From Bacteroidetes bacterium GWA2_40_15 (GTDB lineage Bacteria; Bacteroidota; Bacteroidia; Bacteroidales; VadinHA17): a stretch of 64,000 bases of DNA. The notes beneath the pieces are model-generated. The model had not been told where the DNA came from. It was given only the letters and a program-made list of their open reading frames with translations, and searched no databases. The position numbers and the translations under genes were made by a program. Position 1 is the stretch's first letter. Every line of letters begins with the position of its first letter. This document shows positions 24,454-40,964 of this stretch, in pieces. The stretch spans positions 73,198 to 137,197 of the forward strand of contig MENI01000097.1 of NCBI GenBank assembly GCA_001768195.1, in the 5' to 3' direction.

Positions 24454-24891
24454 ATGAAAACAAAATTGTTACTTACAGGACTTGCGCTTATGATTGTTAC
24501 TTTCATTGCAAGTGGTCAGCAAACTGACAACAAGGTTAAACAACCAAATACACCACCTGCGAGAGGTGTTTATGTGGATGAAAATAAAGATGGCGTTTGC
24601 GATTATTTTGAAACCCGCCCGAATAATGTTCCTCCCGGAAGAGGAATGGCTTACGGCAGAGGCTATGGAAGAGGAAACCGCGCCGGATATGGCCCGGCAT
24701 ATGGAGCCGGTCGGGGGTATGCATATGGTGGAGGTTATGGCAAGGGTTACAGACGGGGAGGAGGATTTGGAGGAGGCCAGGCATCAGGTCTGGGCAGAGG
24801 CCAGGGACGGGGCCCGGGGAGCCAATATTTTGATGAGAACAAAAATGGAGTCTGTGACCGGTATGAAAAACCAACTGATACAAGTAAGTAA
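24454..24891 (+). CDS. Secreted Gly/Tyr/Arg-rich low-complexity protein flanked by two DENK[DN]GVCD motifs
   Basis: Signal peptide MKTKLLLTGLALMIVTFIASG. VDENKDGVCDYFE is at 24574-24612 and FDENKNGVCDRYE at 24829-24867, around a core GRGMAYGRGYGRGNRAGYGPAYGAGRGYAYGGGYGKGYRRGGGFGGGQASGLGRGQGRGPG. The likely start is 24454; the ORF-track start is 24406. Confidence 0.6.
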   Translation: MKTKLLLTGLALMIVTFIASGQQTDNKVKQPNTPPARGVYVDENKDGVCDYFETRPNNVPPGRGMAYGRGYGRGNRAGYGPAYGAGRGYAYGGGYGKGYRRGGGFGGGQASGLGRGQGRGPGSQYFDENKNGVCDRYEKPTDTSK

Positions 24892-24915: not shown

Positions 24916-24950
24916 GAATTGTCCGGCCAGCTACCGGACAATTCTTTTAT
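24916..24950. terminator. Strong hairpin terminator shared by the convergent ECF module and the efflux operon
   Basis: GAATTGTCCGG (24916-24926), loop ccagcta, CCGGACAATTC (24934-24944), then TTTTAT. This is a perfect 11-bp stem. Confidence 0.75.
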
Positions 24951-24983: not shown

Positions 24984-25703
24984 TCACATAAATTTCTCCC
25001 TTTTCTGAAGATTAAGCAACGCAGCCAGCAGGAATATGACAGATCCGGTAATAAGTATTATCCGGTTCTTGAATGTTATTAATGCCCACGATGTTTCATT
25101 AATACCATAAGGAATATCAAAAGGATTGAGAAAAATATTCCACTGACTTCTTCCAAGGGATGAATCAAACAAAATCATAAATATTAGCCCTATTATTATC
25201 ATAATGACTGCAGTACCGTTGCCATTTCTGACAACAGTCGAAAGCATAAATGCAAGCATCCCCATGAAAAGAACCGGGACCATCACCTGAAGAGTAACTT
25301 TAAAAATCCGGAATTTCACAATCAGTACGGAGGAGAGAAATGTGAAAAGAAGCATGATGACAAATGCTACAACAAATATCAGAATGATCCTGACAAGCCA
25401 TACTTTATACCTGTAATCGGGAATTCCAAAGAGGATCTCAATCGTCCTGGCATCCATGTCATTCTGAATGCCGAATACAGACGGATAAAAAACCAGTAAT
25501 AATCCTGAGAAGAGGAAAACCCCGTAAAGATCGTCCATGTTCGAAACATCACTTTCAAAGACATAAATTACTGACAGGCCAAGATAGAATATTACAGATC
25601 CGGCAAGAAACCATATGAATTTGTTTGCAAATATTATCCGCAGGTTGTAAACTATCATTTTGTAAATGAGATTGATGAAATTTGTAATATTGTTCGTTTT
25701 CAT
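24984..25703 (-). CDS. ABC-2 type transporter permease (6 TM)
   Basis: 239 aa, six hydrophobic helices and no NBD. Its ATG overlaps the stop of the upstream RND-NBD fusion (ATGA at 25700-25703). Confidence 0.65.
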   Translation of the reverse strand: MKTNNITNFINLIYKMIVYNLRIIFANKFIWFLAGSVIFYLGLSVIYVFESDVSNMDDLYGVFLFSGLLLVFYPSVFGIQNDMDARTIEILFGIPDYRYKVWLVRIILIFVVAFVIMLLFTFLSSVLIVKFRIFKVTLQVMVPVLFMGMLAFMLSTVVRNGNGTAVIMIIIGLIFMILFDSSLGRSQWNIFLNPFDIPYGINETSWALITFKNRIILITGSVIFLLAALLNLQKREKFM

Positions 25704-28700
25704 CCTGCAATGTGATTTTTTATATTATTCTGGCTTTCATGACCTCTGAGCAGCCACAGGTAGGCGTCCTCAAGGCTGGGTGTTACCGGTCTGGCTCCTT
25801 TTCCGGGTGATGACCCGGATATGACCCTGACTCTTACATTATCTCCGTCCGACATATGGTTTACAACAAGATGACTATCAACAAATTCTGAGAATTCTGC
25901 GGCTGGGATTACATGTTGCCACACATGCCCTTCAGCTTTTCTGGTCATCTCAATAGGTTTTCCAAGATATCTTAGTTTGCCTTTATTCAGTACAGCAACC
26001 TGGTTACAGGAACTTGAGATGTCTTCAATTATGTGAGTTGAAAATATCACAACCCGTTCGCGACTCAGTTCCACAAGAAGATTTCTGAACCTTATCCTTT
26101 CACGCGGGTCAAGCCCTGCTGTAGGCTCATCCACAACAAGGATCCTCGGAAGGTGAAGCAGAATAAGTGCAATGCCCATTCTTTGTTTCATGCCTCCTGA
26201 ATAGGAGCCTATTTTTTCATGGCGTCTCTCTTCCATATGCACAGCCTGAAGAACATAAGTTACGCGTTCTTCCCTGGTTTTTACATCTGTTATGTTCTTC
26301 AGCATGGCCTGGTAATGAAGATATTCGTGCGCAGTCATATTCTCGTAACTCCCGAATTCCTGGGGCAGATATCCGATAAGTCCCTGGAGCTCTTCCCTCA
26401 TTTTCTGCGTATCGAGTCCGTTTATCCACACCTTACCGTAACTTTGTTCAAGAATTCCGCAGATTATTCTCATCAGAGTTGTTTTTCCGGCTCCGTTTGG
26501 TCCCAGAAGTCCAAACATGCCGTTGCCGATATTCATCGAGACGCAGCTTAATGCCTTAAATGGTTTTTTCTTCCTGCCGATCAGAGGTACTGCAGCAACA
26601 ATTTTGTAGATGGTTTTCCTGATATTCCTGAACCTTCCTTCAAGCCGGTAAATATCAATATTTTCCTTTGTGAGTTTCTGTCCGGTTTTATAAATGAAGA
26701 GTGACATAAACCATATGAATCCGAGGATGAGAACAACAGCAAGGTTATCCCATCGGAGCTGGAACCATGCCAGATCAGCCAGCGGGATCATCCAGAATAT
26801 AAGAATTTCAATTATACCGGAAATCCGTTTTATCCAGATCTTTTCTCCGTTCATGCTTTTATATGCCAATAGTTTTCTCAGGGAGGTCCATATCGCAGAA
26901 AGGAAAAACCAGGTGATTATGGTAAAGATGAATATCCAGAATCCTTTACTGAGAAAAAAATAGGTGAAGTATATCATAAAACCGAGTAGCGGTATCTGCC
27001 AAAGGAATTCTTTTAGATCACCGGATGATTTATATTCTTTCTCAAGTCCCAGCTTTTTTCTTATCCTTGCTCCGGCTTTCCATTCCCTTGTCCACCTGTT
27101 TTCCCTGTCATAGATTTTCACAAGGCTCTGAACATAAATATTTATGTTTTCATCAGCAGGGATGACAGTTTCCCTTGCTTTTTTAAGACTTTTCAATATG
27201 AACCAGGTTGCAGCCGGTATTAAGATCACAACAAGCAATGTCAAGATAATTTTCCAGATAAACTTATCTATATTGCTGTAGATAAGATAAATAGATATTG
27301 AAAGTATAATTATTTGCAGAACCTTGATTTTCCAGTTGAGCGAAAGGATCCATTTTAAAGCATTTTCCAGACCCGTATAAAACGTTGGGATGAAAACGAG
27401 TGTAAGAAGAGTGCTGAGTGTAAGGCCTCCTATTACAGTGATGGCGAATGAAGCACCGATTACTGAAACAAATTCTGCCTGTCCCATAGCAAGAGGGATA
27501 AGAGCAACGACCGTTGTCGCTGCAGTTATCAGTACCGGCCTGAGCCTTGCCATTCCTGCCATCATAAGCGCCCTGTGGGAACGGTAGCCTCGTTTGCGGA
27601 GGATATTGGTATAATCTATAAGAATTATGCCATTATTTACAACAACCCCCAGCAGAATAAGAAATCCGGTAAGAGTATTAGCATTGAGGAGTGAGTTTTG
27701 AGTCAGGATGAGCGCTATCAGCGATCCCAGAGCTGCAAGAGGGATACTGAACATAAGGACCACAGGAGTTACAACAGACTCAAAAACTGCAGCCAGAACC
27801 ATATATATCAGAAGAAAAGACACTCCGATCAGGTAATAGAAATCTTTGAGCTGATTTTCCTCATGAACTATTTCAACGGCAATTCCGGCAGGAATATTCA
27901 ACCCGGAGACTATTGATTCTATATCACTGCGGGCTCCCGCAAGCAGGTCCTTTGAATTCCTGATCTCATCGTTAAATGTGTAGGTGACTGTGACTCTTTT
28001 TTCCTGGTTTTCCCTGTGTATGTTACCCATGCCTGAGGAAAAAACAATGCTGGCAAGTTCTTCCATTTCCATAACCGAGCCATTGTTCCCGGTGACTTCC
28101 ATCCGCTTCAAGTCATCAATACTCTTTTCCACCGCCCTGTCAGAAAGATTTTCCTTATCCGGGTACTTAATCATAATGTCATAGCTTTCTGATCCCTGAC
28201 GGAACGTGGCTCCGGAGGAGTATTCCCGGCTGAATGTTGCCAGTGCGGCGGAAAGATTCATGAGTGTGAAGTTGTTCCTGCCCATGTAATCCATATCGAA
28301 GATCAGCCTTACCTCAGGCTTGTTATCCTGAACATTGACACTGGAGCTGCTTATTGTCGAAAGACCTTCCAGATAAGATTTAATATCGTCTGCCAGGTTC
28401 TTCATCTGGTTGAAATTCTGACCTTTAATTATAACACTCTCTTTTTCTGAACCGATACCAAGGAGATTCATAAAATCCGCTCCCGGATTATAATTTTCAC
28501 CACCACCACCTCCGGTGAAACCGCCTCCGGTTGAAAGCTCATTCATGCTGATTTCAGCTGAAGAGATATTTTTAACCTTTTGTTCTATATCATTTTTTAT
28601 TTCCGGCAGTGTTCTTTTGCTTGATTTATCCCACTCTTTCAGGAGGTTGATAGTAACTGTTGCCTGGTTTTCTTCTATACGGCAAACAATATCCTCCTTT

Positions 28701-30463
28701 TCAGGGATACTTGCCAGTCGCGATTCAATTTCAGCAACAACCGCATCACTCTTTTCAAGTGTTGATCCGCCAGGCATTGTCACTGAAAGCCTGAAGGTAG
28801 GTGCTTCAACCTCCTGTGTTGAGCTGAGGCTTAAAGTAAGGCTTATAAGAAGCGCTGTAAAAAACAGGACAAGGGTTCCTATTATTGTTGATGCAGGGTT
28901 TCTCATGCCGGCTTTCAGTATAAGATAATAGCCCTGTATCAGCCGGTCGTTTATTGTAAGTTTTTTAAATATCTCAGATTTTTGCCCTGATGATCTTTTC
29001 AGAAGATAAAATGTTGCCATCGGAATAAAGAACATGGCAATGGCAAGGGAAATGGTAAGGGTAGAAATAATTGAAACGCCAATATTCTTTCCTATAATCT
29101 TTACCATGAAATTATCAGAGAAGATGAAGGGGAAGAAAACAATCAGCGTTGTGACCGTTGCTGCAAAGACTGATCTCCAGACCTCTGTTGTTCCTTGTTT
29201 TACAGCAGTTTCAGGAGTATAATCCTTGCCTGCAAGACGATAAATATTTTCGAGTACCACCACTGAATTATCAACCAGCATCCCAATGGCAAGTGCCATT
29301 CCGATAAGGGTGAGACTGTTTATTGTGATACCGTAAGCATAGAAGAAGTTAAAGGCAGAATAAACCGAAACAGGAATGGCAATTGCAATAATGGTGACAA
29401 GCCTTATATTTCTAAGGAACAGCCACAATATCAATACTGCCATTAACCCTCCTGATATGGCAAGGTTGATGATCTGGGCAATATTTTTCTCCATTATCCC
29501 GGCAGTGTTATTCTGCACAACAATCATTACCCCTTCAGGGGCCAGTTTGCTGTTCAGTTTATCCACCTGTTTCAGCGCTTCATGTGAAAGATCAATCAGA
29601 TTGGCCTGGTTGTCATTCACAAGGGTTATTGTTACGGCATCAAGTCCGTTAACCCTGCTGAATGATGTTCGTTCCTTGGCTCCGAAAATTATTTCTGCTA
29701 CATCACCAAGAAGAACAGGCCCCTCATTTTTAACAATAATTTTACCTATATCTTTTACATCAGTGTACTCGGATATTATATTTACAAACAATTCTCTGTC
29801 TCCGTCAACAACTTTACCAGCAAATGTCTTATCGGCTCCGTTATTGTTAAGAAGGCTTCGTACCTGTCCTATTGAAATCCCTATTGCCTTGCATGCCTTC
29901 TCGTTAAGCCTTACTTCTATCGAGTTCTCCTTTCCCCCGTAAACCTGCACTCCGGCAATGCCGTCAATATTCTCAAACTCAGGTTTTATTTCACGGTCGG
30001 CAATGTTTCTTATGCGGTCGATACCGCCCTCGCCTCTTACCTGCAGCTCCATGAACTGGTTTGTAAGCTGCTTAAGATCGATTTTTATTACATTGATAAT
30101 GAAATCTTCCGGGATTGAATTTTTGACAATATCTATTTTCTCACGGAGCTTAAGATTGGCATACTTGAGATCGGCATTCTGATTATAGTAAATTACAACA
30201 GTACCGTATCTGGAGGAGATGTTTGATTCGATCTTTTCAATACCCTCAAGTGTTCCAATTGCCCCTTCAATTGGTATAATTGCCTGGGATTCAATATAGG
30301 AAGGATCCATTTCAAGAGGGGTGGCGACCTGCACTATCAGGGCAGGCAGTTCTGCATTTGGAAAAAGTTCGACCGACAGTTTCCTGTATGATACATAGCC
30401 AAGCATCGTCAGCCCTGCAAAGAGCATTATGATAAGAATCCTTCTTTTAATTAAAAAATCCAT
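25700..30463 (-). CDS. Fusion protein: AcrB/HAE-type RND efflux permease (aa 1-~1032), six extra TM helices (aa ~1033-1266) and an ABC transporter ATP-binding domain (aa ~1267-1587)
   Basis: Single 1587-codon ORF. RND hallmarks are the N-terminal LSVELFPNAELP, TM4 GMLVDNSVVVLEN and TM11 ARLRPVLITAATT. NBD hallmarks are Walker A GPNGAGKT (26480-26503), Q-loop YLPQE, signature YSGGMKQR, Walker B ILVVDEPTAGLD and H-loop STHII. Confidence 0.85.
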   Translation of the reverse strand: MDFLIKRRILIIMLFAGLTMLGYVSYRKLSVELFPNAELPALIVQVATPLEMDPSYIESQAIIPIEGAIGTLEGIEKIESNISSRYGTVVIYYNQNADLKYANLKLREKIDIVKNSIPEDFIINVIKIDLKQLTNQFMELQVRGEGGIDRIRNIADREIKPEFENIDGIAGVQVYGGKENSIEVRLNEKACKAIGISIGQVRSLLNNNGADKTFAGKVVDGDRELFVNIISEYTDVKDIGKIIVKNEGPVLLGDVAEIIFGAKERTSFSRVNGLDAVTITLVNDNQANLIDLSHEALKQVDKLNSKLAPEGVMIVVQNNTAGIMEKNIAQIINLAISGGLMAVLILWLFLRNIRLVTIIAIAIPVSVYSAFNFFYAYGITINSLTLIGMALAIGMLVDNSVVVLENIYRLAGKDYTPETAVKQGTTEVWRSVFAATVTTLIVFFPFIFSDNFMVKIIGKNIGVSIISTLTISLAIAMFFIPMATFYLLKRSSGQKSEIFKKLTINDRLIQGYYLILKAGMRNPASTIIGTLVLFFTALLISLTLSLSSTQEVEAPTFRLSVTMPGGSTLEKSDAVVAEIESRLASIPEKEDIVCRIEENQATVTINLLKEWDKSSKRTLPEIKNDIEQKVKNISSAEISMNELSTGGGFTGGGGGENYNPGADFMNLLGIGSEKESVIIKGQNFNQMKNLADDIKSYLEGLSTISSSSVNVQDNKPEVRLIFDMDYMGRNNFTLMNLSAALATFSREYSSGATFRQGSESYDIMIKYPDKENLSDRAVEKSIDDLKRMEVTGNNGSVMEMEELASIVFSSGMGNIHRENQEKRVTVTYTFNDEIRNSKDLLAGARSDIESIVSGLNIPAGIAVEIVHEENQLKDFYYLIGVSFLLIYMVLAAVFESVVTPVVLMFSIPLAALGSLIALILTQNSLLNANTLTGFLILLGVVVNNGIILIDYTNILRKRGYRSHRALMMAGMARLRPVLITAATTVVALIPLAMGQAEFVSVIGASFAITVIGGLTLSTLLTLVFIPTFYTGLENALKWILSLNWKIKVLQIIILSISIYLIYSNIDKFIWKIILTLLVVILIPAATWFILKSLKKARETVIPADENINIYVQSLVKIYDRENRWTREWKAGARIRKKLGLEKEYKSSGDLKEFLWQIPLLGFMIYFTYFFLSKGFWIFIFTIITWFFLSAIWTSLRKLLAYKSMNGEKIWIKRISGIIEILIFWMIPLADLAWFQLRWDNLAVVLILGFIWFMSLFIYKTGQKLTKENIDIYRLEGRFRNIRKTIYKIVAAVPLIGRKKKPFKALSCVSMNIGNGMFGLLGPNGAGKTTLMRIICGILEQSYGKVWINGLDTQKMREELQGLIGYLPQEFGSYENMTAHEYLHYQAMLKNITDVKTREERVTYVLQAVHMEERRHEKIGSYSGGMKQRMGIALILLHLPRILVVDEPTAGLDPRERIRFRNLLVELSRERVVIFSTHIIEDISSSCNQVAVLNKGKLRYLGKPIEMTRKAEGHVWQHVIPAAEFSEFVDSHLVVNHMSDGDNVRVRVISGSSPGKGARPVTPSLEDAYLWLLRGHESQNNIKNHIAG

Positions 30464-30473
30464 TCTTTATGCT

Positions 30474-33400
30474 TTATGAAACCCTGCCGGCATCTTCTTT
30501 GAAATTTCCTGTGCCCGTGAACCATTTGCTGAAGCTATCGAATACCCAGTATACGCATGGGATCAAAATCAGTGTTAGTAAAGTGGAGGAGACCAGACCT
30601 CCTATGACAGCAAGGGCCATAGGCGATCTGAGTGAAGCACTTTCTCCTAACCCGATTGTAAGGGGTAGAAGAGCAAGTATTGTAGTAAGACTTGTCATCA
30701 GTATGGGTCTGATCCTCTGTGTGCCTGCAAGGATGATTGCATCCTTCTTTGGTATCCCGCTTTCTCTCAGGCGGTTGATCCTGTCGATCAGAAGGATTGA
30801 ATTATTGACCGCTATTCCTCCAAGCATTATTATTCCTATATATGCCATCATATTCATAGGTTTTCCCAGCAGGAAGAATATCAGAACAGATCCTGCCCCT
30901 GCAAGGGGTATTGTAAGCATTATCACAAATGGCTGTATAACAGACTCAAACTGTGCAGCCAGTACCATAAAGACGAGGATAAGGGAGAGCATCAGGGCGA
31001 ACGAAAGATCTGAAACTGACTCTTTTCTTTTAAGCTCCTCACCGGTAAATTCTATTTTATAGTCAACAGGAAGAGATATAGATTTAAGCGATGATTCTGC
31101 TTCACTTACTACCTTGTCAAGCGGCGATCCGCTTTTTACCATGGCATAGATATAACATGTTCTTGCCTGGTTCCTTCTTGTTATCTCCCTCGGACTTATT
31201 ACAGTTCTGATGTCTGCAATATCACTCAGTGGCACCTTTATTGCACCTGCATTGATCATCATATCACTCAGGCTCAGAATAGAGAGATCTCCAAGCCTGA
31301 TGGTTATGTCCTTCATCTCGCCCTCCTTTTCGAAACTACCTGCAGATGATCCTGATAAATAACCTTTTACCTGATTTATGATGCTTTCAACAGTTACACC
31401 ATAATAGCTCGTTTTAAACCTGTCAACGGATACTTCAACCTCCGGAGTTCCCTCATCAATGGAGGTAGTAATGTTATAAAGGCCGGTATTGGTTTCGAGA
31501 ATAACTCTACATTCATTAATAATTCTTTCAAGTTCGGAATAATCATCTCCGGAAATTTCCAGTACAAACGGGGCTTTACTGGTCCCCAGTGATGACTGCA
31601 GGGCCGTTTCTTCCCTGGTAAATCCTGCTTCCATATCAGGAATGGTTTTAAGCCATTTTTCAATAGAGGATATAGCCTCACCGGTGATTGAAGCAGACTC
31701 ATCACCCATAATTACTTTTATTGATGATGTATTTTCTCCTCTTGATTGTCCTGCCTGGCTGAATGAAGAGTTTTTATCACTGCCTGCCTGGCTGTATATC
31801 ATTCTGACCTTATCTCCCAGCATCTCTTTTATTATATTTTCAGTGCTGGCTGTTGTCCGTTCTGTGAGTTGAAGGCCGGTTCCTTCAGGAAGCTTAATAT
31901 TAACGGTAAATTCAGGTGATTCTGACCTTGGCATGAATTCGCTTCCGAGATGGGGGATCAGCAAAGCGGAACCGGTCATTATAATTACAGAAACTATAAT
32001 TACTGTTATTCTTTTCACAATAACTGCTTCAAGAAACCTGCCGTACCAGTTGAATTTGAATACAGGCGGAGTTTTAGTGTTTTTATTTTTATCGGGAAAT
32101 AGCACAGAAACGAGCATCGGGATCACAAGCATGGCGACCACCAGGGAGGAAAGAAGCGAAAATGCAACGGTCCAGGCCTGGTCCTTGAACATTTCACCCG
32201 ATGCTCCATGAAGGTAAACTATAGGAAGAAATACAACAATCGTTGTGATTGTCGATGAGGTTATTGCTGCTCCTACCTCTCCTGTACCCCGTGTAACTGA
32301 TTCAACAAAAGGCACACCTTCCTCCCGAAGCCTGGAAATGTTTTCCAGCACAACTATTGCATTGTCAACAAGCATGCCGGCTCCCAGGGCAAGTCCTCCG
32401 AGAGTCATTATATTTAATGTGAGATGGTTGAAGTACATCAGGTTGAAGGTGGCAATTATTGAGATAGGGATAGCTATACTGATAACCAGTGTTGCTCCTA
32501 TCCTTCTCAGAAATACATATAGAATGACAACAGCCAGAAGTATACCGATAATAAGTGTGTTCTTCACCTCACCTATGGCCTTGTTAATATAGTTCCCCTG
32601 GTCGTGGACTTTAACAAATTTGTATCCCGGCAGCACTTTTTCAAGATCTGTAATTGCTTTATCGAGGCTCTTCACAACATCTACAGTGATGAATTTGGGC
32701 TCTTTGTATATCGAAAGCCCTATGCAGCGTTCGCCATTAAGAGTAACTATGTTTTCAGGATCCTTATTGGCAAATCCGATAGTTGCAATATCTTTCAGGT
32801 ATACGGGCACCCTTGAAGAAAGGGCCGGTTGGGATGAACTTATCCCTGATAATGAACCGGTTGTTGAAGTCTCTTTGAATCCTACTATTATGTTTCCGAG
32901 GTCTTCAATATCTTCAAGGACACTTACGCCCTTTACAATATATTTGAGTCCCATGTCTACTATTGATCCCCCGGAAACGTTCCTGTTATAATTGCTGATC
33001 TGTGCAGCAATTCCTTCTGTTGTCAGACCAAATGATTCCAGCAGGTATCTGTTTGTTTCGATTACAACTTCACTTTCATCTGTTCCTGTTAGTTTCACAT
33101 CGGCAACACCCTCAATCCTTACAAGCTCATTCCTGATATAGTTTTCTGCTGTTTTCCTGAGATCATCCATATTGATTATGTTCTCATTTTTCAGAGCAAT
33201 GGTCATAACAGGAACGGCATTCGGGTCATACTGTGAAATAGTAAAATCCTCGATATCCGAATTCTGGCTGAATGAGTTAAGCTCTTTCTGAAGATCAAGG
33301 AATGCTTCATCCATATCCTTGTTCCAGTCGTACTCAACAGTTATGGTAGCAAGTCCTGCCTGTGATACAGAGGAGACCTCAATAACATCACTTTGCCTCA

Positions 33401-33617
33401 TTGCCAGTGACTCTATCTGATCTACATAGTTCTTCTCAATCTCTTCAGGAGGTCGCTCCCCTGCCTTGAGTTCGATGTAAATTTTCGGATTGTTAAGATC
33501 AGGGAACAGGTCGGTACCAAGTTTGCCAAAAGAGATATAACCAAGCAGTACAACCCCCAGTACCAGCATCAGTACCGTGACCGGATATTTTACAGCAAAT
33601 TGTGCAATACGGTTCAT
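30474..33617 (-). CDS. RND efflux transporter permease subunit (AcrB/HAE1-like), paralogue A
   Basis: 1047 aa, 12-TM RND architecture. Motifs: FAVKYPVTVLMLVLGVVLLGYISFGKLGTDLFPD, TM4 GMLVDNAIVVLEN, TM11 QRIRPILMTSL. Confidence 0.9.
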   Translation of the reverse strand: MNRIAQFAVKYPVTVLMLVLGVVLLGYISFGKLGTDLFPDLNNPKIYIELKAGERPPEEIEKNYVDQIESLAMRQSDVIEVSSVSQAGLATITVEYDWNKDMDEAFLDLQKELNSFSQNSDIEDFTISQYDPNAVPVMTIALKNENIINMDDLRKTAENYIRNELVRIEGVADVKLTGTDESEVVIETNRYLLESFGLTTEGIAAQISNYNRNVSGGSIVDMGLKYIVKGVSVLEDIEDLGNIIVGFKETSTTGSLSGISSSQPALSSRVPVYLKDIATIGFANKDPENIVTLNGERCIGLSIYKEPKFITVDVVKSLDKAITDLEKVLPGYKFVKVHDQGNYINKAIGEVKNTLIIGILLAVVILYVFLRRIGATLVISIAIPISIIATFNLMYFNHLTLNIMTLGGLALGAGMLVDNAIVVLENISRLREEGVPFVESVTRGTGEVGAAITSSTITTIVVFLPIVYLHGASGEMFKDQAWTVAFSLLSSLVVAMLVIPMLVSVLFPDKNKNTKTPPVFKFNWYGRFLEAVIVKRITVIIVSVIIMTGSALLIPHLGSEFMPRSESPEFTVNIKLPEGTGLQLTERTTASTENIIKEMLGDKVRMIYSQAGSDKNSSFSQAGQSRGENTSSIKVIMGDESASITGEAISSIEKWLKTIPDMEAGFTREETALQSSLGTSKAPFVLEISGDDYSELERIINECRVILETNTGLYNITTSIDEGTPEVEVSVDRFKTSYYGVTVESIINQVKGYLSGSSAGSFEKEGEMKDITIRLGDLSILSLSDMMINAGAIKVPLSDIADIRTVISPREITRRNQARTCYIYAMVKSGSPLDKVVSEAESSLKSISLPVDYKIEFTGEELKRKESVSDLSFALMLSLILVFMVLAAQFESVIQPFVIMLTIPLAGAGSVLIFFLLGKPMNMMAYIGIIMLGGIAVNNSILLIDRINRLRESGIPKKDAIILAGTQRIRPILMTSLTTILALLPLTIGLGESASLRSPMALAVIGGLVSSTLLTLILIPCVYWVFDSFSKWFTGTGNFKEDAGRVS

Positions 33618-33622
33618 TTCTG

Positions 33623-34675
33623 TTACTTAATTATTTTTACCTTCGATTTGTTGCTGAGCGTTTCAAAGCCGCTTGTTACAATTCGTTCATTCCGGGTCAC
33701 TCCCCTTGTAACTTCTACTTCAGTGATATTCTCCAGACCGGTCTCAATAATTCTCTCTGAAGCAATCCCTCTGTCGACAACAAATACGGTTTTTCCTCTC
33801 TGGCGGGACAGGATAATGTTTTTCGGGATCACAATTACAGAATCCTTCCGGTTAACCAGAATATCCACCCGTACAAACATGCCAGGTCTGAGAAGCAGGC
33901 CGGGATTATTAACTTGTATATTGCCCCTGAATGTGCGGGTATCAGGATTGATGGCAGGGGAGAGCTGAGTTATGCTTCCATTGATAGTATCGTCGGGAAT
34001 TGTATAGTTTGTCAGCTGCACTTTCTGTCCAGGCCTGATGGCAGAAATATATTTCTCCGGTAACTGAACATCGAGATACATAATATTGTAATCCATTATT
34101 TTAACAATTGATGAACCGGTTTCTACCTGGCTGCCCTGAGTATAATAATTAAGGTCTACTATTACTCCGTCAATTGGTGATGTTATTCTTGTTTTCTCAA
34201 GCTGGAGCCTCGAATTTTCTGCTGTGGTTTTGGCATTGCTGTAGTTGATACTGGCAGTTTTGAGTTCCCTGAGTGTAACCCCGCCTTTTTCGTATAGAGA
34301 TTCCTGTTTTCTGAGTTCACTCTCCATGAGCTCCATATTGAGCTCATTGGTCTCGAGCTGAATTGAATTTACATACTCCTTGTCTTCCAGCCTTGCTATG
34401 AGAGACCCTGCTCTGACTTTATCGCCCAGCTGCCAGTTTCTGCCTGTTGCGGGATTTTTCTCAAGATAATATGAAGCGGTTATTTTAGATTTGAGTACAA
34501 TATCGCCCTTTGGGTAAACAGTACCGGTTGTGCTGACATATTCGCCTATATGTTTTAGTTTTATATCCTCAACAGATACCGGTATTTCAACATCGGCATT
34601 CAGATTCTGTTCATTGTTTCTGCAGGAGTAAAATACTGCTAAGAACAGGGTTAAGATGAAAAATCCTTTTTTCAT
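33623..34675 (-). CDS. RND efflux periplasmic adaptor (membrane fusion protein, HlyD family) lipoprotein
   Basis: 350 aa with a lipobox-like FLAVFYSC signal, a coiled-coil hairpin region and beta-barrel/MP domains typical of MFPs. It lies directly upstream of the RND genes. Confidence 0.85.
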   Translation of the reverse strand: MKKGFFILTLFLAVFYSCRNNEQNLNADVEIPVSVEDIKLKHIGEYVSTTGTVYPKGDIVLKSKITASYYLEKNPATGRNWQLGDKVRAGSLIARLEDKEYVNSIQLETNELNMELMESELRKQESLYEKGGVTLRELKTASINYSNAKTTAENSRLQLEKTRITSPIDGVIVDLNYYTQGSQVETGSSIVKIMDYNIMYLDVQLPEKYISAIRPGQKVQLTNYTIPDDTINGSITQLSPAINPDTRTFRGNIQVNNPGLLLRPGMFVRVDILVNRKDSVIVIPKNIILSRQRGKTVFVVDRGIASERIIETGLENITEVEVTRGVTRNERIVTSGFETLSNKSKVKIIK

Positions 34676-34686
34676 GTGTTTAAATT

Positions 34687-36183
34687 TTAATTTTTTCCTT
34701 TTAATGTCATTACAGGGGATACCGGCGCTTTCTTCTCAAAATCATATAGTGTCTGAATTTTAAGATTAAGGAGCTCAAGTTTATATGAAATAAGTGAATT
34801 GGTATATGATAACTGTTTCTCAGAGAGTTGGTTCTGGAAGATGTTAAGGTCCATGCCAGTAAGATCTCCGTTTTTATATTTTTCCAGATTAAGATCGTAT
34901 GTAAGCTGGGCATTCGTAACGGACTGACGGGCGATTTCAATCTGATTCTGAAGATTAAGAAGGTTCCTGTAAATTTTCCTGATACCGAGAATTATATTGT
35001 TCTGTTCCTCCTCAAATGAAATATTAGCCGATTCTATAGATGCCTGCGTTGCCTTTATCCTGGCTTTCCTTTCACCCCAGTCCCAGAGAGGTATTGACAG
35101 GGAAAGTGCTACAGATTCATTATCTGTGGGATTTTCATAAAGGTTTTCAAGATTTTCATTGTCTCCGAATATACCGAAAGTAAGTCCCAGATTTCCCTTA
35201 AACTCGTTGAGAGCCTTGGTCTGTATAAGATCGAATTGTGTAAACTCAATATCTATTTCGCGCTGACGCAGTTCCATCCTGTTGGCTAGTCCCTGGTCAA
35301 TGGCGAAGGATATATCAACTGCAACAGTATCTACTGCGATATTTGGCAAAACAATGATGTCATCAAAGAGGCTTATTCCAACAAGGAGTTTGAAATCGTC
35401 CTTTGCATTTTCAAGTGAAACAAGTGCATTCTCATAATCCGATTTCGTTGTTGCAAGGTTCAGTTCAGCCTGGAACATCTCCTCCCTGGCTGAGATACCG
35501 GCATCGACCTTATTCTTTGATACCTCATGGCTCCTCTGCATATTCTGATATGCCTGTGAGGCAATGTCGAGACTCTGCTGCTGCTGATATACATAATAGA
35601 AAGCCTGGGCCACCTGTCGTTCGAGGGCAAGAAGCTGAATGGCATAATTTAACTGAGAGGTTTCAAGGGCAAGCTCCAGTTCTTTAAGTGTAAGCTTTGT
35701 TCTGTTATAGGTGAACAATGGCTGTTCGAGGCGGACTGACAGGTTGTTGTTGAATCCTTTGGTTGTAGTGCCGGAGTACTCACTGTAGGAGTCTGTATAA
35801 CCAAACTTGTTAGTGAGAGAGATCCTTGCATCTGTTAGCTTTATAGGTTGCATAATGGAAAAACTGGCATTACTTTCAGTTGCCTGGTAGGTATTATAGT
35901 CAGATATAAGGTTGTTGAACTCACGGCTCTGAGTGTAGCTGAAAGGATTCAGAGTCAATGCGAACTGCGACTTCAGAGCGGCATTCTGAGCATTCAGGTT
36001 CTCCTGACTTCTGATAAGGTTCAGCCTGGTTTTTTTCATTGAAGGACTGTTTATCTCGGCAGTGTTTAATGCCTGTTCGAGTGTAAACCCCTGTTGCGAA
36101 AAAACTGATATGTTAAGTACAGATAGCAACACGATGTATATTAGTTGCAGTCTGATTATCATTACTAAGCGTTTCATATTCAT
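34687..36183 (-). CDS. TolC-family outer membrane efflux protein
   Basis: About 498 aa with the signal MKRLVMII...VFSQQ and two repeats of the TolC helix/strand pattern (LTLEQAL, NLNAQNAALKSQF...). I prefer the ATG at 36183/36177 over the ORF-track GTG at 36237, which lies in a repeat tract. Confidence 0.85.
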   Translation of the reverse strand: MNMKRLVMIIRLQLIYIVLLSVLNISVFSQQGFTLEQALNTAEINSPSMKKTRLNLIRSQENLNAQNAALKSQFALTLNPFSYTQSREFNNLISDYNTYQATESNASFSIMQPIKLTDARISLTNKFGYTDSYSEYSGTTTKGFNNNLSVRLEQPLFTYNRTKLTLKELELALETSQLNYAIQLLALERQVAQAFYYVYQQQQSLDIASQAYQNMQRSHEVSKNKVDAGISAREEMFQAELNLATTKSDYENALVSLENAKDDFKLLVGISLFDDIIVLPNIAVDTVAVDISFAIDQGLANRMELRQREIDIEFTQFDLIQTKALNEFKGNLGLTFGIFGDNENLENLYENPTDNESVALSLSIPLWDWGERKARIKATQASIESANISFEEEQNNIILGIRKIYRNLLNLQNQIEIARQSVTNAQLTYDLNLEKYKNGDLTGMDLNIFQNQLSEKQLSYTNSLISYKLELLNLKIQTLYDFEKKAPVSPVMTLKGKN

Positions 36184-36224
36184 TCGATTATCTTTTATTT
36201 TTGTCTTTATATCTCCTCGTCTTT

Positions 36225-36252
36225 CCTCACACCTCACCCCTCACTCCTCACT
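36225..36252 (-). repeat. Tandem heptamer tract, 4 x CCTCACN (GTGAGG on the coding strand)
   Basis: Perfect CCTCAC cores at 36225, 36232, 36239 and 36246 (7-nt period), with degenerate copies extending to about 36262. The tract spans the stop codon (36248-36250) of the 1149-aa gene and the spacer before the TolC-like gene. Confidence 0.7.
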
Positions 36253-39200
36253 CCACCTTCACCCACTTAATTGCATCACCGATTACAAGCCTTCCGGCTG
36301 ACTGGTTGGTCAGAACGACTCTGGCAGTATCAGGTGAAAAGTAATAACGTCCAATGTTATTCCATCCGGCATCTGCGTTTTCATAATCAAGAGTTATTTC
36401 ATCACTTCCCTCGTCATGAAAAACTTTATAATGGAAATCTTTAAAGCGGCTATCCTCCTGTCGCTCTCTATCGGGTCCGGGAGCTCCTCCCTGCCCGCCG
36501 CCTCTCTCATCCCTGATTGTCATCCTTTCAGCATTCTTTCCGACAAAACAATATACATCATAGTATCCCTGATCCTTAATCAAAGTGTTCCATTCGATTG
36601 CCTTATCTCCTGTACCTGCCCTGGTGTATACTGCTGACCTGATATATTTTCCAAAGTATGAGGTAAGTACTACAGGCTGCCAGTATTCAGGCACATTCCA
36701 CTGACTGATCTGCATATACGTATTACTTCTTCTGTTGGTTATGCCAAAAAGCCTTTTAAGGGGACTTGCCGTAATCTGGTTGCCTGATTTGAATCCTTCA
36801 TCCTCATTGTCAGTTATAATTTCCGAAGGGGCTGAAAATTGCAGAGGTTCTGCTGTTATTTCTACCTCTTCGCTTATCTTCCCGGTGTTTATCTTTGCTT
36901 TTAATATTTCATTTAAAGGCATATTTATTTCACCGGGGATGTTTTTGGCAAAGAGAGTATTTATCATCATGCCCCTGGGCTGAACATCCGTTAAGAGAGA
37001 TATTTTTTTTGTCTCCCCGGAATCGAGAAATACAATCCTCAATATATCGGAAGTTTCCATTCCCCGGCCCTGCATTGTTCTGCCTCCGGGTCCTCCTCCT
37101 GACGGCTGAAATGCTCCGGACATCTGCTGTCCCCTGCGTCCCGGCGCACCCTGTCCTTCGCTCCTGAAGGCTATATTGAATAACCCGGGTACCTTTTCAT
37201 GATTTGCTGCAATAAATGAAACCAGGTACCTTGATCTCTCTTCCAGGATTATCTCATTTGCCTTCAGATCCGAAAAGATAAATCCCGGTTGTTCCTTTCC
37301 ATTGAACCAGTCAGCGAGATATGGATAAAAGTCGAAATGGAACATATTCATAATGTCATCTCTGAATTGAAGCATATCAATTCTTTCAAAACGGTGATCA
37401 TCACAATATTTTGAGAACCAGGTATTGAATTCCTCTATACCTGCTTTTGATCTCAGGAGATTGAAGAGCCAGTCACCTTTAACTGCAATTACAACTCTTA
37501 TAGTATCTCCGGAGGGATTATCTGCAAGCAGATCCTTCAGGCTGTGCTCCTTCAATACCAGATTTGCTTTGTCATTATCAGTAAGATTGCCCATCATTGA
37601 CGAATACCTGTCAGGGGGCCCCTGTTGCACAAGCTGCTGGAGATGCGATTCAAATACTGCATTGATTACAGGATACTCTGCAGAATGGAAATTATTCTTA
37701 TAGAAATAGAAGCTTGGGCCCAGCAGGTATCTGGAAGGTTCATTGTACACTCCGTTTCTTGTAAATAAGGAATTTACGCCACTGATGAACGTATTCCGGA
37801 TAAAATCGTTGAAAAGCCTTACCTGAAGCTCTTTGTCGGTTATTACCTGGTTATTGCGGGCCATCCTTTTTTTCTGGCTCTCAAATCTTCTGCTGAAGCC
37901 TGAATTATCGAGAGTTGATAGTTTTTCGGGTAAAAGGATCATTCCAGGTTGAACTTCTGCTCTTGTCTGGGTGCTGTTTTTAGGGTATGAATAGAACTGA
38001 ACCGGAACTTCCAGAAGCGTTAAGGTTCTGAAAGGATACCTTGTCGAAAATGAAGTTTCAAGGTCTCTCATGATCCCTGAAACCAGGAAGGGTAACGTGT
38101 CCTTTAATTCTGACAGATCCTTTTTGTAGTAATCATTTCCCGGGAAATAGTGGGTGATGTAAACCACGGAATCAACCGTAAGAGTATCTGACCGGTAGTT
38201 ACCAATAGCAAGGGTAAGGCCTGTCAGCGGATTTTCCGGAAGAAATGAATACCAGTTGGTGTCAGATGTTTGTCTGCCCTGGGAAACAGGAGTCAGATTT
38301 TCTTTTGTTTTTACCCTCAGGGAGTATTTTGTGAAATCTATCTTGATTCGCGCAGGATTTGAAGGATAATAGTTAAGAGACGCTACGGGATACCAGTGGG
38401 TTTCAGGTGTTAGCAGAAGATATTTGTCATTGAGGAATGACTGCCTTTTATTTACATTAAGCATTGCAATCCTGTATCTGTTCTCTTTAATGTTGTCACT
38501 GTAATTGGGAGAGCAGAATGATTCATTGATGCTGCCTGCGTAAGTTATTGTCAGACTGTCAGATTCACCGGAGAGAAGTTTTGAGGAAGGTACTATCTCT
38601 ATTATATGATTGGTTCTGGAGTATTGCAGGCTTATGTTCCCTGCTGTTATTTTATTAACAGTAAGCGATGGGTTAAGCGAAAAAAGATAATAGTCGAGAG
38701 GCTCTCCGTTGTCATTTGTTATTTTAAGATTTGCCGAGGCTTCAATTGATTCTCCTCTATGAATCAACTCGATGGAAGCCTCCTTCACAACCGGGAATCT
38801 CCTGTCTTCAAAAATCCTGTTTGCCTCTGTAACAGCTTTTTTGGCATCTGATTTATCCCTGTGAATTGAATATGTATTTAACCCAAAAAAAACTGCAGCT
38901 GCCAGCGAAACTGCTAAAAATACAATTGCCAGGATAGTATGCAGGCTTGACTGCGGTAGTCTTTTGAACAATAATACTGTTCCCATTACGAGAGCCATTC
39001 CTGAGAAGAAGTAGAGAAGTCTTTGATTAATAATTACTTCAGGATTGTCAAAACCGATAATTCCAGACTTAAAAATTGGTAAGCCGAATGCCATATAATC
39101 AAATATGGAACCAACCCTGAACCACAACCAGAACATATCAAGCGCTGCTATTCCGAGCAGGATAAGGAATGTTACCGCCTGGTTTTTTATTAGTGACATA

Positions 39201-39697
39201 AGCAGGAATGCCAGCCCCAGGCTGAATATTATTGTTGGCAGGGTTATTATAAGCAGGTATTCAAAGTATGCCATTATATCAACACTCATTTTTTTTGATA
39301 TAATATTTATTATAAGCCCAATCCCGAGGATTATCAGATTCAGTCCGAGGAACAGCCTTATTATTCCCCAGGTTTTACCAAGTACATACTCGAAGTTTGA
39401 AATTGAACGGGTATAGAGTACTTCATTTGTATCAAGCTTTTTATCTCTTTTAAGAAAATCTGCTGCAAGGAATATTACAACTATTGCCTGTCCGATATTC
39501 AGGAGGTAAAGATTCACAAGCGGAACCGAAGATGAAATAGAAACCAGTTCCCATGATTCATCAGCGATAAATACCCCTATATTCATGAAGGTAAAGATTA
39601 CCAGGGCTCCGAGGGAAAAGAGTCTGAAAAACCAGCTTCTCCTGAGAGTTTTTGCCTCATATCTGGCAACTGTACCTGCATTGTGCAAAAAAGACAT
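36248..39697 (-). CDS. ABC-2 permease fused to an M1-aminopeptidase-like (apparently non-catalytic) periplasmic region and a C-terminal golvesin-C-like beta domain
   Basis: 1149 aa. About 6-7 N-terminal TM helices are followed by an M1 N-domain-like segment (TPETHWYPVASLNYYP). No HExxH occurs anywhere in the translation. Two Gly/Arg-rich inserts are present. The C-terminus GWNNIGRYYFSPDTARVVLTNQSAGRLVIGDAIKWVKVE resembles golvesin-type C-terminal domains. Confidence 0.65.
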   Translation of the reverse strand: MSFLHNAGTVARYEAKTLRRSWFFRLFSLGALVIFTFMNIGVFIADESWELVSISSSVPLVNLYLLNIGQAIVVIFLAADFLKRDKKLDTNEVLYTRSISNFEYVLGKTWGIIRLFLGLNLIILGIGLIINIISKKMSVDIMAYFEYLLIITLPTIIFSLGLAFLLMSLIKNQAVTFLILLGIAALDMFWLWFRVGSIFDYMAFGLPIFKSGIIGFDNPEVIINQRLLYFFSGMALVMGTVLLFKRLPQSSLHTILAIVFLAVSLAAAVFFGLNTYSIHRDKSDAKKAVTEANRIFEDRRFPVVKEASIELIHRGESIEASANLKITNDNGEPLDYYLFSLNPSLTVNKITAGNISLQYSRTNHIIEIVPSSKLLSGESDSLTITYAGSINESFCSPNYSDNIKENRYRIAMLNVNKRQSFLNDKYLLLTPETHWYPVASLNYYPSNPARIKIDFTKYSLRVKTKENLTPVSQGRQTSDTNWYSFLPENPLTGLTLAIGNYRSDTLTVDSVVYITHYFPGNDYYKKDLSELKDTLPFLVSGIMRDLETSFSTRYPFRTLTLLEVPVQFYSYPKNSTQTRAEVQPGMILLPEKLSTLDNSGFSRRFESQKKRMARNNQVITDKELQVRLFNDFIRNTFISGVNSLFTRNGVYNEPSRYLLGPSFYFYKNNFHSAEYPVINAVFESHLQQLVQQGPPDRYSSMMGNLTDNDKANLVLKEHSLKDLLADNPSGDTIRVVIAVKGDWLFNLLRSKAGIEEFNTWFSKYCDDHRFERIDMLQFRDDIMNMFHFDFYPYLADWFNGKEQPGFIFSDLKANEIILEERSRYLVSFIAANHEKVPGLFNIAFRSEGQGAPGRRGQQMSGAFQPSGGGPGGRTMQGRGMETSDILRIVFLDSGETKKISLLTDVQPRGMMINTLFAKNIPGEINMPLNEILKAKINTGKISEEVEITAEPLQFSAPSEIITDNEDEGFKSGNQITASPLKRLFGITNRRSNTYMQISQWNVPEYWQPVVLTSYFGKYIRSAVYTRAGTGDKAIEWNTLIKDQGYYDVYCFVGKNAERMTIRDERGGGQGGAPGPDRERQEDSRFKDFHYKVFHDEGSDEITLDYENADAGWNNIGRYYFSPDTARVVLTNQSAGRLVIGDAIKWVKVE

Positions 39698-39712
39698 CAG
39701 ATTATTGTATTG

Positions 39713-40606
39713 CTAGTCAATAATATATGTTTGCAGCTTATGTTCCATGAAATAAACATATGCGTCTTCAATATTTGGAAAAACCTGAGTTGAAATGAAT
39801 TCCGGAGGATTGTCCGAAACAATCTGTACATCCCATCCCGACTCCACCGGAAGTGTAGAGATAACATTATATTTTTCTTTAACAGCGTCATACTCATGCG
39901 GACTTAGTAAAAGTCGGAACACATGACCCTCGGCATGTCTGACGAGATTTTCGGGAGATCCTTCAAATACCAGTTCCCCTTTATTCAGCAGAGCCATACC
40001 ATGACATGTGGATGAGATATCTCCTACAATATGAGTTGAGAGTAAAATTATTACATCATTTCTGCTGAGCTGCGAAAGAATATTCCTGAATCTGATCCTT
40101 TCATCAGGGTCAAGCCCTGTAGTAGGTTCGTCAACAACTATAAGCTTCGGATTTCCGATTAGTGCCTGAGCAATTCCTAATCGTCGTTTCATGCCGCCGG
40201 ATAGTCTGTTAGCCTGCCTGTCGCGCACCTCAAGCAACCCAACCTGATCAAGGAGCCTGTCGACTTCAGCTATTCTCGCCTTTCGGTTCTTCATCCCGGC
40301 AAGCGAACCTGAGTAATCGAGGAATTCCCATGTCTTAAGCGAGGTGAAGAACCTGAAATCCTGGGGAAGATAACCAAGCATGCTTCTCAGTTTTTCCCTG
40401 TGCTTCTGAATGTCCATGCCGTCAATAAGCACTGATCCGGAAGTTGGTTTCATCAGGGTGACAATAATTCTCATCAGGCTTGATTTGCCTGCTCCGTTAG
40501 GACCCAGCAAGCCGAACATTCCCGTTCCTATTTCGAGATTAATATCTTTAAGAGCATGATTACCATTAGGGTATATCTGGTTCAGATCTTTTATCTCAAT
40601 TTTCAT
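39713..40606 (-). CDS. ABC transporter ATP-binding protein, first gene of the efflux operon
   Basis: 297 aa. Walker A GPNGAGKS, Q-loop YLPQD, signature LSGGMKRR, Walker B LIVVDEPTTGLD, H-loop STHIV. It is clearly paralogous to the NBD fused to the RND protein. Confidence 0.9.
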   Translation of the reverse strand: MKIEIKDLNQIYPNGNHALKDINLEIGTGMFGLLGPNGAGKSSLMRIIVTLMKPTSGSVLIDGMDIQKHREKLRSMLGYLPQDFRFFTSLKTWEFLDYSGSLAGMKNRKARIAEVDRLLDQVGLLEVRDRQANRLSGGMKRRLGIAQALIGNPKLIVVDEPTTGLDPDERIRFRNILSQLSRNDVIILLSTHIVGDISSTCHGMALLNKGELVFEGSPENLVRHAEGHVFRLLLSPHEYDAVKEKYNVISTLPVESGWDVQIVSDNPPEFISTQVFPNIEDAYVYFMEHKLQTYIID

Positions 40607-40749
40607 AAAAATATCTAAATTCCGGTGGTATTAATCATTCATTTCTATCTGACCTTATAAAGACGGTAAATATTCCGGATGTGACAATAAAACTGTAAAA
40701 TAGCTCTGAAAAATAAGCTAATTGTATCAAATTTCATCTGGTGATTCAC

Positions 40750-40808
40750 GAACTCACCCCCTGTTTCCCCCTCTTTGCGGAGCAGAGAGGGGGTAGGGGG
40801 GTGAGTTC
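40750..40808. repeat. G/C-rich nested hairpin element in the AT-rich intergenic region
   Basis: The outer 12-bp stem is GAACTCACCCCC (40750-40761) / GGGGGTGAGTTC (40797-40808). The inner 8-bp stem is CCCCCTCT (40767-40774) / AGAGGGGG (40786-40793). A related copy lies at 53181-53207. Confidence 0.7.
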
Positions 40809-40946: not shown

Positions 40947-40964
40947 TAAACAAAATATTACCAG

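Follow-up and report, generated by a model that had tools for sequence, protein, structure and literature searches.

The window analyzed here, a 64,000-nucleotide stretch of DNA from Bacteroidetes bacterium GWA2_40_15 (contig MENI01000097.1), carries a cluster of seven genes (positions 24984–40606, all on the minus strand, as are the features within them given below) that encodes the parts of an ATP-binding cassette (ABC) transporter together with those of a resistance-nodulation-division (RND) efflux pump, and in which one ABC ATPase is fused to an RND subunit. On balance, and judging from sequence comparisons, we lean toward the view that the products of this cluster make up a single conserved export machine that spans the envelope; we infer a single transcript, physical assembly of the products, and a heterodimeric ABC transporter within it.

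The genes are arranged in the order NBD1 (a nucleotide-binding domain, NBD), big permease (PB), outer membrane factor (OMF), membrane fusion protein (MFP), RND-A, RND-B::linker::NBD2, and small permease (PS). The spacers measure 15, 64, 11, 5, and 10 nt (10 replaces 64 if the OMF begins at GTG 36237), and the start codon of the small permease overlaps the stop of the fusion gene in a 4-nt ATGA. An initial annotation of the window had placed seven minus-strand ORFs here, with their coordinates, lengths, spacers, and overlap, and all of these were verified from our ORF calls. Its inventory was also correct: one adaptor and one channel, plus NBDs, ABC-2 membrane subunits, and RND paralogs in pairs.

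The 1587-amino acid (aa) product of the sixth gene combines an ACR_tran match (residues 2–1030) and an ABC_tran match (residues 1314–1449) in one polypeptide, as determined with Pfam. That one NBD is tethered to an RND subunit, as had been proposed, is therefore confirmed by its Pfam domains and by the conservation of the fusion. More than 120 protein clusters (76–90% identity) keep this design; the best-scoring 120 are all 1566–1606 aa long, all carry both ACR_tran and ABC_tran, and have public names that go no further than “efflux RND transporter permease subunit” or “AcrB / ABC-type ATPase.” A query comprising the linker and NBD was searched against 1.84 billion cluster representatives, and approximately 35 full-length fusions of 1550–1600 aa (representatives of 50%-identity clusters) were found, down to approximately 32% identity. 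Because fusion length and domains are kept across clusters, we consider the fusion to be real and under selection. An assembly or frameshift artifact was rejected as its origin since hundreds of independently produced assemblies share it.

A genome scan that used one genome per species yielded 80 loci with full-length matches, and at least 581 species-level genomes carry a relative of the NBD2 region. Cultured hosts include Tannerella forsythia, Bacteroides faecis, B. faecichinchillae, Prolixibacter bellariivorans, Draconibacterium mangrovi, Mariniphaga sediminis, two Gaoshiqia species, Marivirga sericea, and Xanthovirga aplysinae, and there are metagenome-assembled genomes (MAGs) labeled Saprospiraceae, Calditrichaceae, Krumholzibacteriia, and Chlorobiota. 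The nearest fusions, at 83–84% identity, come from MAGs labeled “Bacteroidales” and “Rikenellaceae.” One contig binned as “Chloroflexota” (L007, JBLNAO010000361.1) encodes a fusion protein 76% identical to that of the window and is probably mis-binned, because its cluster is typical of Bacteroidales. At a locus from a close relative (L087, an ENA assembly, positions 16113–23486), both RND-A and RND-B::NBD2 are split (890 + 160 aa, and 1068 aa plus a separate NBD, respectively); these splits are probably indel errors of a noisy assembly and not real fission. An apparent stand-alone linker and NBD with no RND part is seen in P0252 (526 aa) and in P0292 (539 aa); either the fusion is split in these cases, or they may be fragments from gene calling or assembly.

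ORFs were called in 81 loci anchored on the fusion protein and labeled with the window proteins. The seven-gene order, on one strand, is present in 81 of 81 as far as the contigs extend, across Bacteroidales, Marinilabiliales, Cytophagales, Saprospiraceae, and Calditrichaceae, so the gene neighborhood comparison suggested in the initial annotation came out in favor of a conserved order. That annotation had also taken homologous loci lacking the ABC or the RND half as a sign of chance juxtaposition, and none of the loci examined lacks either half. In 79 of the 81 loci, a PS homolog comes after the fusion gene, the remaining two contigs ending at or just past the fusion, and the cluster includes both MFP and OMF in each Bacteroidota locus whose contig reaches them. 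A Latescibacteria locus (L085) keeps the six-gene core with the OMF moved to the end. No conserved neighbor or regulator was found beside the cluster, and homologs of the genes that flank it in the window are missing from nearly all loci; the cluster therefore behaves as a self-contained module.

A second, deeply diverged class of fusions, 1390–1460 aa in length and recovered in the same search of cluster representatives, joins RND and NBD directly, without the six extra transmembrane (TM) helices that separate the two parts in the window protein. It includes P0300, P0317, P0322, P0323, P0363, P0374, P0380, and P0381, with loci L082–L084, and its named members are from Omnitrophota and Sumerlaeota MAGs. 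In these three loci, the order is MFP, NBD1, small ABC-2 permease, RND-A, PB-like protein, and RND-B::NBD2, followed in two of the three by the OMF. By alignment score, the free RND is far nearer to RND-A and the fused RND nearer to RND-B, just as the free NBD is nearer to NBD1 and the fused NBD nearer to NBD2. The small permease matches Pfam ABC2_membrane_2 in two of the three loci. The PB-like proteins (882–961 aa, no Pfam family on record) align with PB by hhalign at 99.9% probability (E = 3e-32) over 730 columns that include the transmembrane domain (TMD) and the periplasmic domain; the alignment covers only PB residues 73–914, and the C-terminal Golvesin_C domain of PB is absent from them.

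Despite the changed order and linker, all eight modules have orthologs in the short-linker class. This persistence is the strongest argument that the modules belong to one machine and are not a chance juxtaposition. The adjacencies of the ABC parts are also exchanged: NBD1 neighbors PB and NBD2 neighbors PS in the main class, whereas NBD1 neighbors PS and PB neighbors NBD2 in the short class. Such a swap would be easier to reconcile with one heterotetramer than with a fixed pair of homodimeric ABC transporters. Sequence comparison suggests that the direct RND::NBD fusion may represent the minimal ancestral design.

Both ATPases are members of one subfamily with intact catalytic motifs. NBD1 (39713–40606) is a free ABC ATPase of 297 aa (Pfam ABC_tran, 3.4e-32) of the DrrA/GldA/NosF-like ABC-2 type that bears a C-terminal regulatory-like domain; its matches to the NCBIfam drrA and GldA models are under the model cut-offs. 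NBD2 (25700–26578) occupies residues ∼1296–1587 of the fusion protein (ABC_tran, 1e-26), and its nearest structures by Foldseek are TM_1403, NosF, LptB, and the NBDs of ABCA proteins. The C-terminal domain typical of TM_1403, NosF, and ABCA NBDs is present in both. The two NBDs share 43% identity (E = 3e-80), and the shared strings listed in the initial annotation were found in them, in agreement with its description of the two as paralogs of one subfamily. The Walker A motif, the Walker B motif with its catalytic Glu, the Q-loop, the signature, and the H-loop are intact in NBD1 and NBD2 of the window; the ATPase motifs of NBD2 are intact in 81 of 81 loci and those of NBD1 in every ortholog scored. 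Of all the modules, NBD2 is the best conserved, with a median identity of 68% in distant loci.

The linker between the RND and NBD parts contains approximately six extra TM segments by hydropathy. It had been described as a six-TM unit, and the number of helices holds; however, they do not form a single block, but are arranged as two and four around a β1-like strand. In the AlphaFold2 (AF2) model of the linker and NBD2 (predicted local distance difference test score, pLDDT, of 70; model residue i corresponds to aa 1030+i), two TM helices at 1044–1097 are followed by a strand at 1107–1116, a helix at 1123–1137, four TM helices at 1147–1267, a helix at 1279–1290, and the NBD from approximately residue 1302. 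The first pair, TM13 and TM14 (aa ∼1044–1097; 27173–27334; model helices 14–34 and 38–67), is also seen by hydropathy, and this hairpin is predicted to bring the chain back to the cytoplasm. The cytoplasmic strand that comes next, INIYVQSLVKIYDRENR (aa ∼1104–1120; 27104–27154), matches IEIKDLNQIYPNGNH of NBD1, with “IYVQSLVKIY” of the fusion pairing with the first NBD1 strand “IEIKDLNQIY,” A-loop Tyr included. Within the strand, alignment A1 shows no variation at I1109 and K1116 and almost none at L1114 and Y1118. In the model, this strand would be the displaced β1/A-loop strand of NBD2, and the four TM helices that follow (aa ∼1147–1267; 26663–27025; model helices 117–140, 144–174, 180–208, and 211–237) would be an insertion into the β1–β2 hairpin of the ATPase.

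The four-TM insertion is absent from the short-linker class. There, the RND C-terminus is followed by a short amphipathic segment and then by “IEIRNLCKIY,” with the remaining NBD after approximately 20–45 residues, and the β1 motif lies approximately 40–65 residues before Walker A. A Pfam scan of 42 linker sequences gave no consistent match, only scattered single hits, and a search of PDB sequences with the linker profile gave nothing meaningful. The linker was rejected as a third ABC TMD, as hhalign comparisons among PS, the PB TMD, and the linker were nonsignificant (E = 0.15, 0.07, and 0.44).

RND-A (30474–33617) is a 12-TM RND permease of 1047 aa (Pfam ACR_tran, 1.9e-218, profile positions 1–1020 of 1021), and the RND-B domain (27359–30463; aa 1–1035 of the 1587-aa protein) matches the same family at 7.7e-160. 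ACR_tran thus runs nearly end to end in both, describing a 12-TM permease with two large periplasmic loops. The two share 27% identity over their full length. Relatives in the PDB are MdtB, ZneA, MdtF, MexB, and AcrB, with MdtB the best solved relative of RND-B. The MdtBC-like pairing of RND paralogs that had been suggested would fit these two full-length ACR_tran proteins encoded side by side, MdtB being the best solved relative of RND-B.

The big permease, PB (1149 aa), joins a membrane domain to a large C-terminal region. In residues 1–296 (38810–39697), an N-terminal amphipathic helix precedes a six-helix TMD of the ABC-2 type, to which a seventh TM helix is added, an arrangement on which the AF2 helices (pLDDT 62) and hydropathy concur. 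The TMD of the window protein alone scores only E = 1.1 against Pfam ABC2_membrane_2, whereas 20 of 31 orthologs match this family (best 1.4e-10) and 8 of 31 match ABC2_membrane_4; a profile search of PDB sequences with the PB TMD gave nothing meaningful. From the seventh TM helix and the K/R-rich cytoplasmic loops, residues ∼300–1149 are predicted to be periplasmic.

Within this region, residues ∼300–930 (36908–38800) adopt an M1 aminopeptidase fold in the AF2 model, in which the well-predicted stretches lie within residues ∼300–850 (pLDDT 62 overall). The top 50 Foldseek matches in the PDB are all M1 aminopeptidases, including IRAP, ERAP1, ERAP2, PepN, F3, and PfA-M1 (E = 1e-17 to 1e-15, 530–690 aligned columns, 9–14% identity). 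The label “M1-like” given in the initial annotation is therefore appropriate at the level of fold, but it does not extend to the active-site motifs or the Pfam family: the HExxH-(18)-E zinc site and the GxMEN exopeptidase motif are absent throughout the 1149 aa of PB, and Pfam Peptidase_M1 gives no match to PB even at E ≤ 10. By eye, “PGMIL” (584–588) and “KELQV” (622–626) stand at the places of GAMEN and HExxH, 36 residues apart, the corresponding distance in Escherichia coli PepN being 34. An active M1 peptidase was rejected on the missing HExxH and GxMEN motifs, and because both the zinc and the exopeptidase motifs are lacking, the domain would be a pseudo-enzyme. Plausibly, then, the periplasmic domain of PB is a pseudo-peptidase that acts as a binding cage. 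This M1-like domain is the fastest-evolving module of the system, with a median identity of 29% in distant loci. Some proteins are annotated by NCBI as “ABC transporter permease/M1 family aminopeptidase.”

At the C terminus of PB, residues 1082–1146 (36260–36454) match the Pfam family Golvesin_C (PF25275; E = 6.8e-12, 46 bits versus a cut-off of 31.6), a β-sandwich resembling a carbohydrate-binding module (CBM). Golvesin itself carries a domain of the CBM6-CBM35-CBM36_like_2 class (PMC9166713).

The small permease, PS (24984–25703; 239 aa), has six hydrophobic segments and is probably a divergent member of the ABC-2 type. Direct searches support the earlier ABC-2 assignment poorly, with 3 of 41 orthologs matching ABC2_membrane_3 (best 4.9e-6) and 1 of 41 matching ABC2_membrane_2, with E = 0.15 against the PB TMD by hhalign, and with nothing meaningful from a profile search of PDB sequences. 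The assignment nevertheless gains support from transitive homology, since PS aligns by hhalign (E = 3.2e-6, 88% probability) with the small permeases of the short-linker class, which themselves carry ABC2_membrane_2.

The cluster contains a single periplasmic adaptor, MFP (33623–34675; 350 aa), which matches TIGR01730 RND_mfp at 195 bits versus a cut-off of 94.9 and Pfam HlyD_D23 at 3.6e-26; its N terminus (…FYSC) looks like a lipoprotein signal. The outer membrane channel is a TolC-family OMF (34687–36183; 498 aa from ATG) with two stretches of Pfam OEP (1e-39) and a TIGR01844 match (2.9e-28) that is under the cut-off. Of its two possible starts, ATG 36183, which the initial annotation had used, is preferred over the alternative GTG 36237 because a signal-peptide-like sequence lies downstream of it and orthologs are 487–528 aa long.

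In the machine that we propose, NBD1, NBD2, PB, and PS would form one heterodimeric ABC-2 (type V-like) transporter, held against a heteromeric RND-A/RND-B pump because NBD2 belongs to the RND-B polypeptide. By analogy with MdtB2C, the stoichiometry would probably be two RND-A to one RND-B, so that each pump would have exactly one NBD2, pairing with one NBD1, and one adaptor and one TolC-like channel would serve the whole assembly. On ATP hydrolysis, the ABC-2 module would move or extract the substrate at the inner membrane, or would work a periplasmic cage made of the catalytically dead M1 aminopeptidase fold followed by the CBM-like domain. The substrate would then be passed to the RND porter domains and expelled via the adaptor and channel. 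Both envelope-crossing steps would in this way be hard-wired in one complex, and both ATP and the proton gradient could be used. The direction of transport, the stoichiometry, the substrate, and the energy coupling are all features that we infer. Our confidence falls somewhat short of even for the more specific proposal that the fused ATP-dependent and proton-motive transporters work as one machine, either as a two-step conveyor, energized from both sources and running from the inner membrane to the outside of the cell, or as an RND pump driven or gated by the ABC part, with the M1 cage as the hand-off station.

Several points weigh against a single machine. Choosing the 81 loci via the fusion protein biases the sample toward loci in which both halves are present. 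Two loci anchored instead on PB show the same cluster, RND half included; this check is a limited one, as both are close relatives. A Gemmatimonadetes locus (L086) keeps the six-gene core with no OMF in the cluster. The assignment of PS to the ABC-2 type is indirect, through transitive homology. A role for the linker helices as an interface is a guess, and these helices have no detectable relation to either permease. Finally, the AF2 models of PB and of the linker with NBD2 are of moderate confidence (pLDDT 62 and 70).

The proton-relay residues of the RND subunits bear on a different explanation, in which the ABC part is a motor or gate with no substrate of its own, whose conformational cycle reaches RND-B via the TM linker and replaces or overrides proton coupling, much as in the mechanotransmission described for MacB, LolCDE, and NosDFY. 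Both RND paralogs have “VDN” in TM4 and “VNN” in TM10, so that the equivalents of AcrB D407, R971, and T978 are kept, whereas those of D408 and K940 are Asn in both. In alignment A1, RND-B residues D398 and N399 (TM4), V942 and N943 (TM10), and R973/T980 (corresponding to AcrB R971/T978) are invariant, and D950 is nearly so; the TM4 “DN” is found in the short-linker class as well. Judged by sequence, neither RND subunit has the canonical set of AcrB proton-relay residues, and this deviation allows for an ATP-driven or ATP-gated RND pump without proving one. The catalytically intact NBD fused to RND-B also casts doubt on a pump powered solely by the proton-motive force. The Asp-Asn and Asn-Asn pairs, invariant in the family where AcrB and MdtB have D407-D408 and K940, speak for such a pump. 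So does the canonical DD and K of ordinary RND pumps encoded a few kilobases from the operon in two other loci (L051 and L078, B. faecis and a Marinifilaceae MAG), as does the fact that NBD2 is the most conserved module and has membrane helices inserted into its own fold. However, the invariance of D398 and R973/T980, with D950 nearly invariant, means that an alternative proton path is possible. CusA and other heavy-metal RND pumps also have a single TM4 Asp, and a pure motor would need less than the complete set of two ABC-2 permeases and a large periplasmic domain that is present here. We regard a purely ATP-driven or ATP-gated RND pump as unlikely.

A somewhat more doubtful explanation is that the cluster encodes an exporter for envelope biogenesis or the cell surface and not a drug pump. 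The cage and the CBM-like domain would then bind an envelope component that bears peptide, lipid, or glycan, such as a lipopeptide, glycolipid, lipoprotein, or polymer, which the ABC part would extract and the RND and OMF parts would deliver to the outer membrane or surface. Such a role would fit a periplasmic substrate-cage fold with a lost catalytic site plus Golvesin_C, the chromosomal, single-copy occurrence of the system per locus and its deep conservation in diderm phyla of the FCB group, and its position next to lpxD, lpxC/fabZ, and lpxA in the lineage of the window. Yet the lpx synteny, which L085 and L086 lack, may be lineage-specific, the short-linker class has no CBM-like domain, and the rapid evolution of the M1-like domain fits variable substrates.

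The weakest explanation, which we consider improbable, is that an RND-A/RND-B-MFP-OMF pump and one or more separate ABC-2 exporters are merely co-expressed or co-localized, the fusion serving stoichiometry or localization with no hand-off: each half has parts sufficient for known stand-alone systems, the adaptor scores above the TIGR01730 cut-off and so is an RND-type MFP, and an interface between the halves is conjectural, but the fusion and the full parts list persist across phyla, two linker architectures, and different gene orders with neither half ever missing from an examined locus, and this persistence is difficult to account for unless the halves depend on each other functionally.

The proposed single machine shares features with several known systems. 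Like MdtABC-TolC and MuxABC-OpmB, it has two adjacent RND paralogs, one adaptor, and a TolC-family channel, and a heteromeric pump is therefore expected. Unlike in those systems, one RND subunit here has six extra TM helices and a full ABC ATPase, the obligatory partners include a free NBD and two ABC-2 permeases, and both RND proteins have Asn at the positions of AcrB D408 and K940. As in MacAB-TolC (type VII), an ABC ATPase is combined with an adaptor, a TolC-like channel, and a permease that bears a large periplasmic domain, and mechanotransmission from NBD to periplasm is plausible here too. However, the permease has an ABC-2 arrangement of 6+1 TM helices with a C-terminal M1-fold domain, whereas MacB/FtsX proteins have four TM helices with the domain between TM1 and TM2, and RND proteins are present in addition. 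Membership in the MacB type was rejected on these grounds (no FtsX or MacB_PCD match, seven TM helices, and a C-terminal domain).

The NBD class with its C-terminal regulatory-like domain, the ABC-2 permeases, and the large extracytoplasmic domain are shared with NosDFY, GldAFG, and ABCA-type (type V) transporters, but here an NBD is fused to an RND protein and has TM helices between β1 and β2. A homolog of NosD or GldG is lacking, no GldF or GldG model gave a match, and membership in GldAFG was rejected (TIGR03522, 182 and 172 bits versus a cut-off of 402.6). The multidomain M1 fold is that of PepN, ERAP1, IRAP, and F3, joined here to an ABC-2 permease and differing from those enzymes in having no HExxH-(18)-E, GxMEN, or Peptidase_M1 Pfam match.

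Two-step relays are known in which an inner membrane transporter works with AcrAB-TolC, or PvdE with PvdRT-OpmQ; the first transporter would bring the substrate to the periplasm or outer leaflet, from where a tripartite pump would expel it, the partners being separate and independently encoded. In the present system, by contrast, the partners share one gene cluster, are conserved together, and have a covalent link. The inner membrane engine is the basis on which tripartite efflux systems are classified as ABC, RND, or major facilitator superfamily (MFS) systems, and if the coupling is real, this one would fall outside that scheme. Two engines in one polypeptide and a fixed list of eight modules across phyla suggest that ATP-driven transport and proton-driven transport cooperate obligately. 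The system makes testable both a hand-off from inner membrane exporters to periplasm-facing RND pumps and the cycling of an RND pump by something other than the canonical proton relay. If the proposal is true, this class of machine is present in hundreds of species, including the cultured T. forsythia and B. faecis; its hosts include cultivable bacteria, some of them with genetic tools, and an oral pathogen and gut Bacteroides are among these.

Public annotation of the system is limited to “efflux RND transporter permease subunit” and “hypothetical protein.” No description of an RND-ABC fusion or of this cluster was found in the full-text literature searched, including a survey of tripartite systems in Chemical Reviews (2021) and a study of the Bacteroides transportome (subscription journals and TCDB were outside the scope of this search). 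The system thus seems new to the literature searched, although every component comes from a known superfamily.

Two hairpins flank the operon. A perfect hairpin with an 11-bp stem (24916–24944; strand unassigned) lies between convergent genes downstream of the operon. It had been annotated as a strong terminator at 24916–24950, and the hairpin itself is present; however, its T-run is on the plus-strand side, and the minus-strand reading has no T-run after the stem, so it is not a canonical intrinsic terminator for the operon. The hairpin with its T-run looks like the terminator of a 161-aa ORF (24406–24891, plus strand) that is convergent to the operon, and it is a possible bidirectional terminator. 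This ORF has no Pfam family and has a homolog in 1 of the 81 related loci. Upstream of NBD1, the intergenic region 40607–40964 contains a GC-rich extended hairpin (40750–40811) in a region of 41% GC. Read as RNA from the minus strand, it has a folding energy of −48 kcal/mol (z = −7.3, with none of 200 shuffled sequences as good), and its arm sequence is unique within the window. It could be an operon leader or regulatory element, or a terminator or insulator between divergent genes; an Rfam scan of the window gave no match.

Beyond this hairpin, positions 40965–45567 hold an HD-domain gene divergent from the operon, followed by lpxD, lpxC/fabZ (encoding an LpxC/FabZ fusion), and lpxA for lipid A synthesis. 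The same synteny is seen in two close relatives (L087, 4132–8882; L088, 4275–8879); it may be specific to this lineage, and is absent from the Latescibacteria and Gemmatimonadetes loci. On the other side, genes at 22554–24191 (plus strand) run toward the operon and encode an extracytoplasmic function (ECF) sigma factor, its neighbor a zf-HC2 anti-sigma factor, and a periplasmic protein of the LTXXQ/Metal_resist family. In L086, too, the small permease is followed by a Metal_resist gene (15941–16456), and no LTXXQ homolog was found in the 81 other loci. A link between the operon and LTXXQ (Metal_resist) proteins was rejected as probable coincidence, the L086 case not being recurrent. At lower coordinates in the window are infB and nusA (within 12544–16840) and a gene for a 2480-aa homolog of SprA, the type IX secretion translocon (4594–12036, plus strand; SprA_N, 3.9e-203), whose sequence confirms an envelope of the Bacteroidota type.

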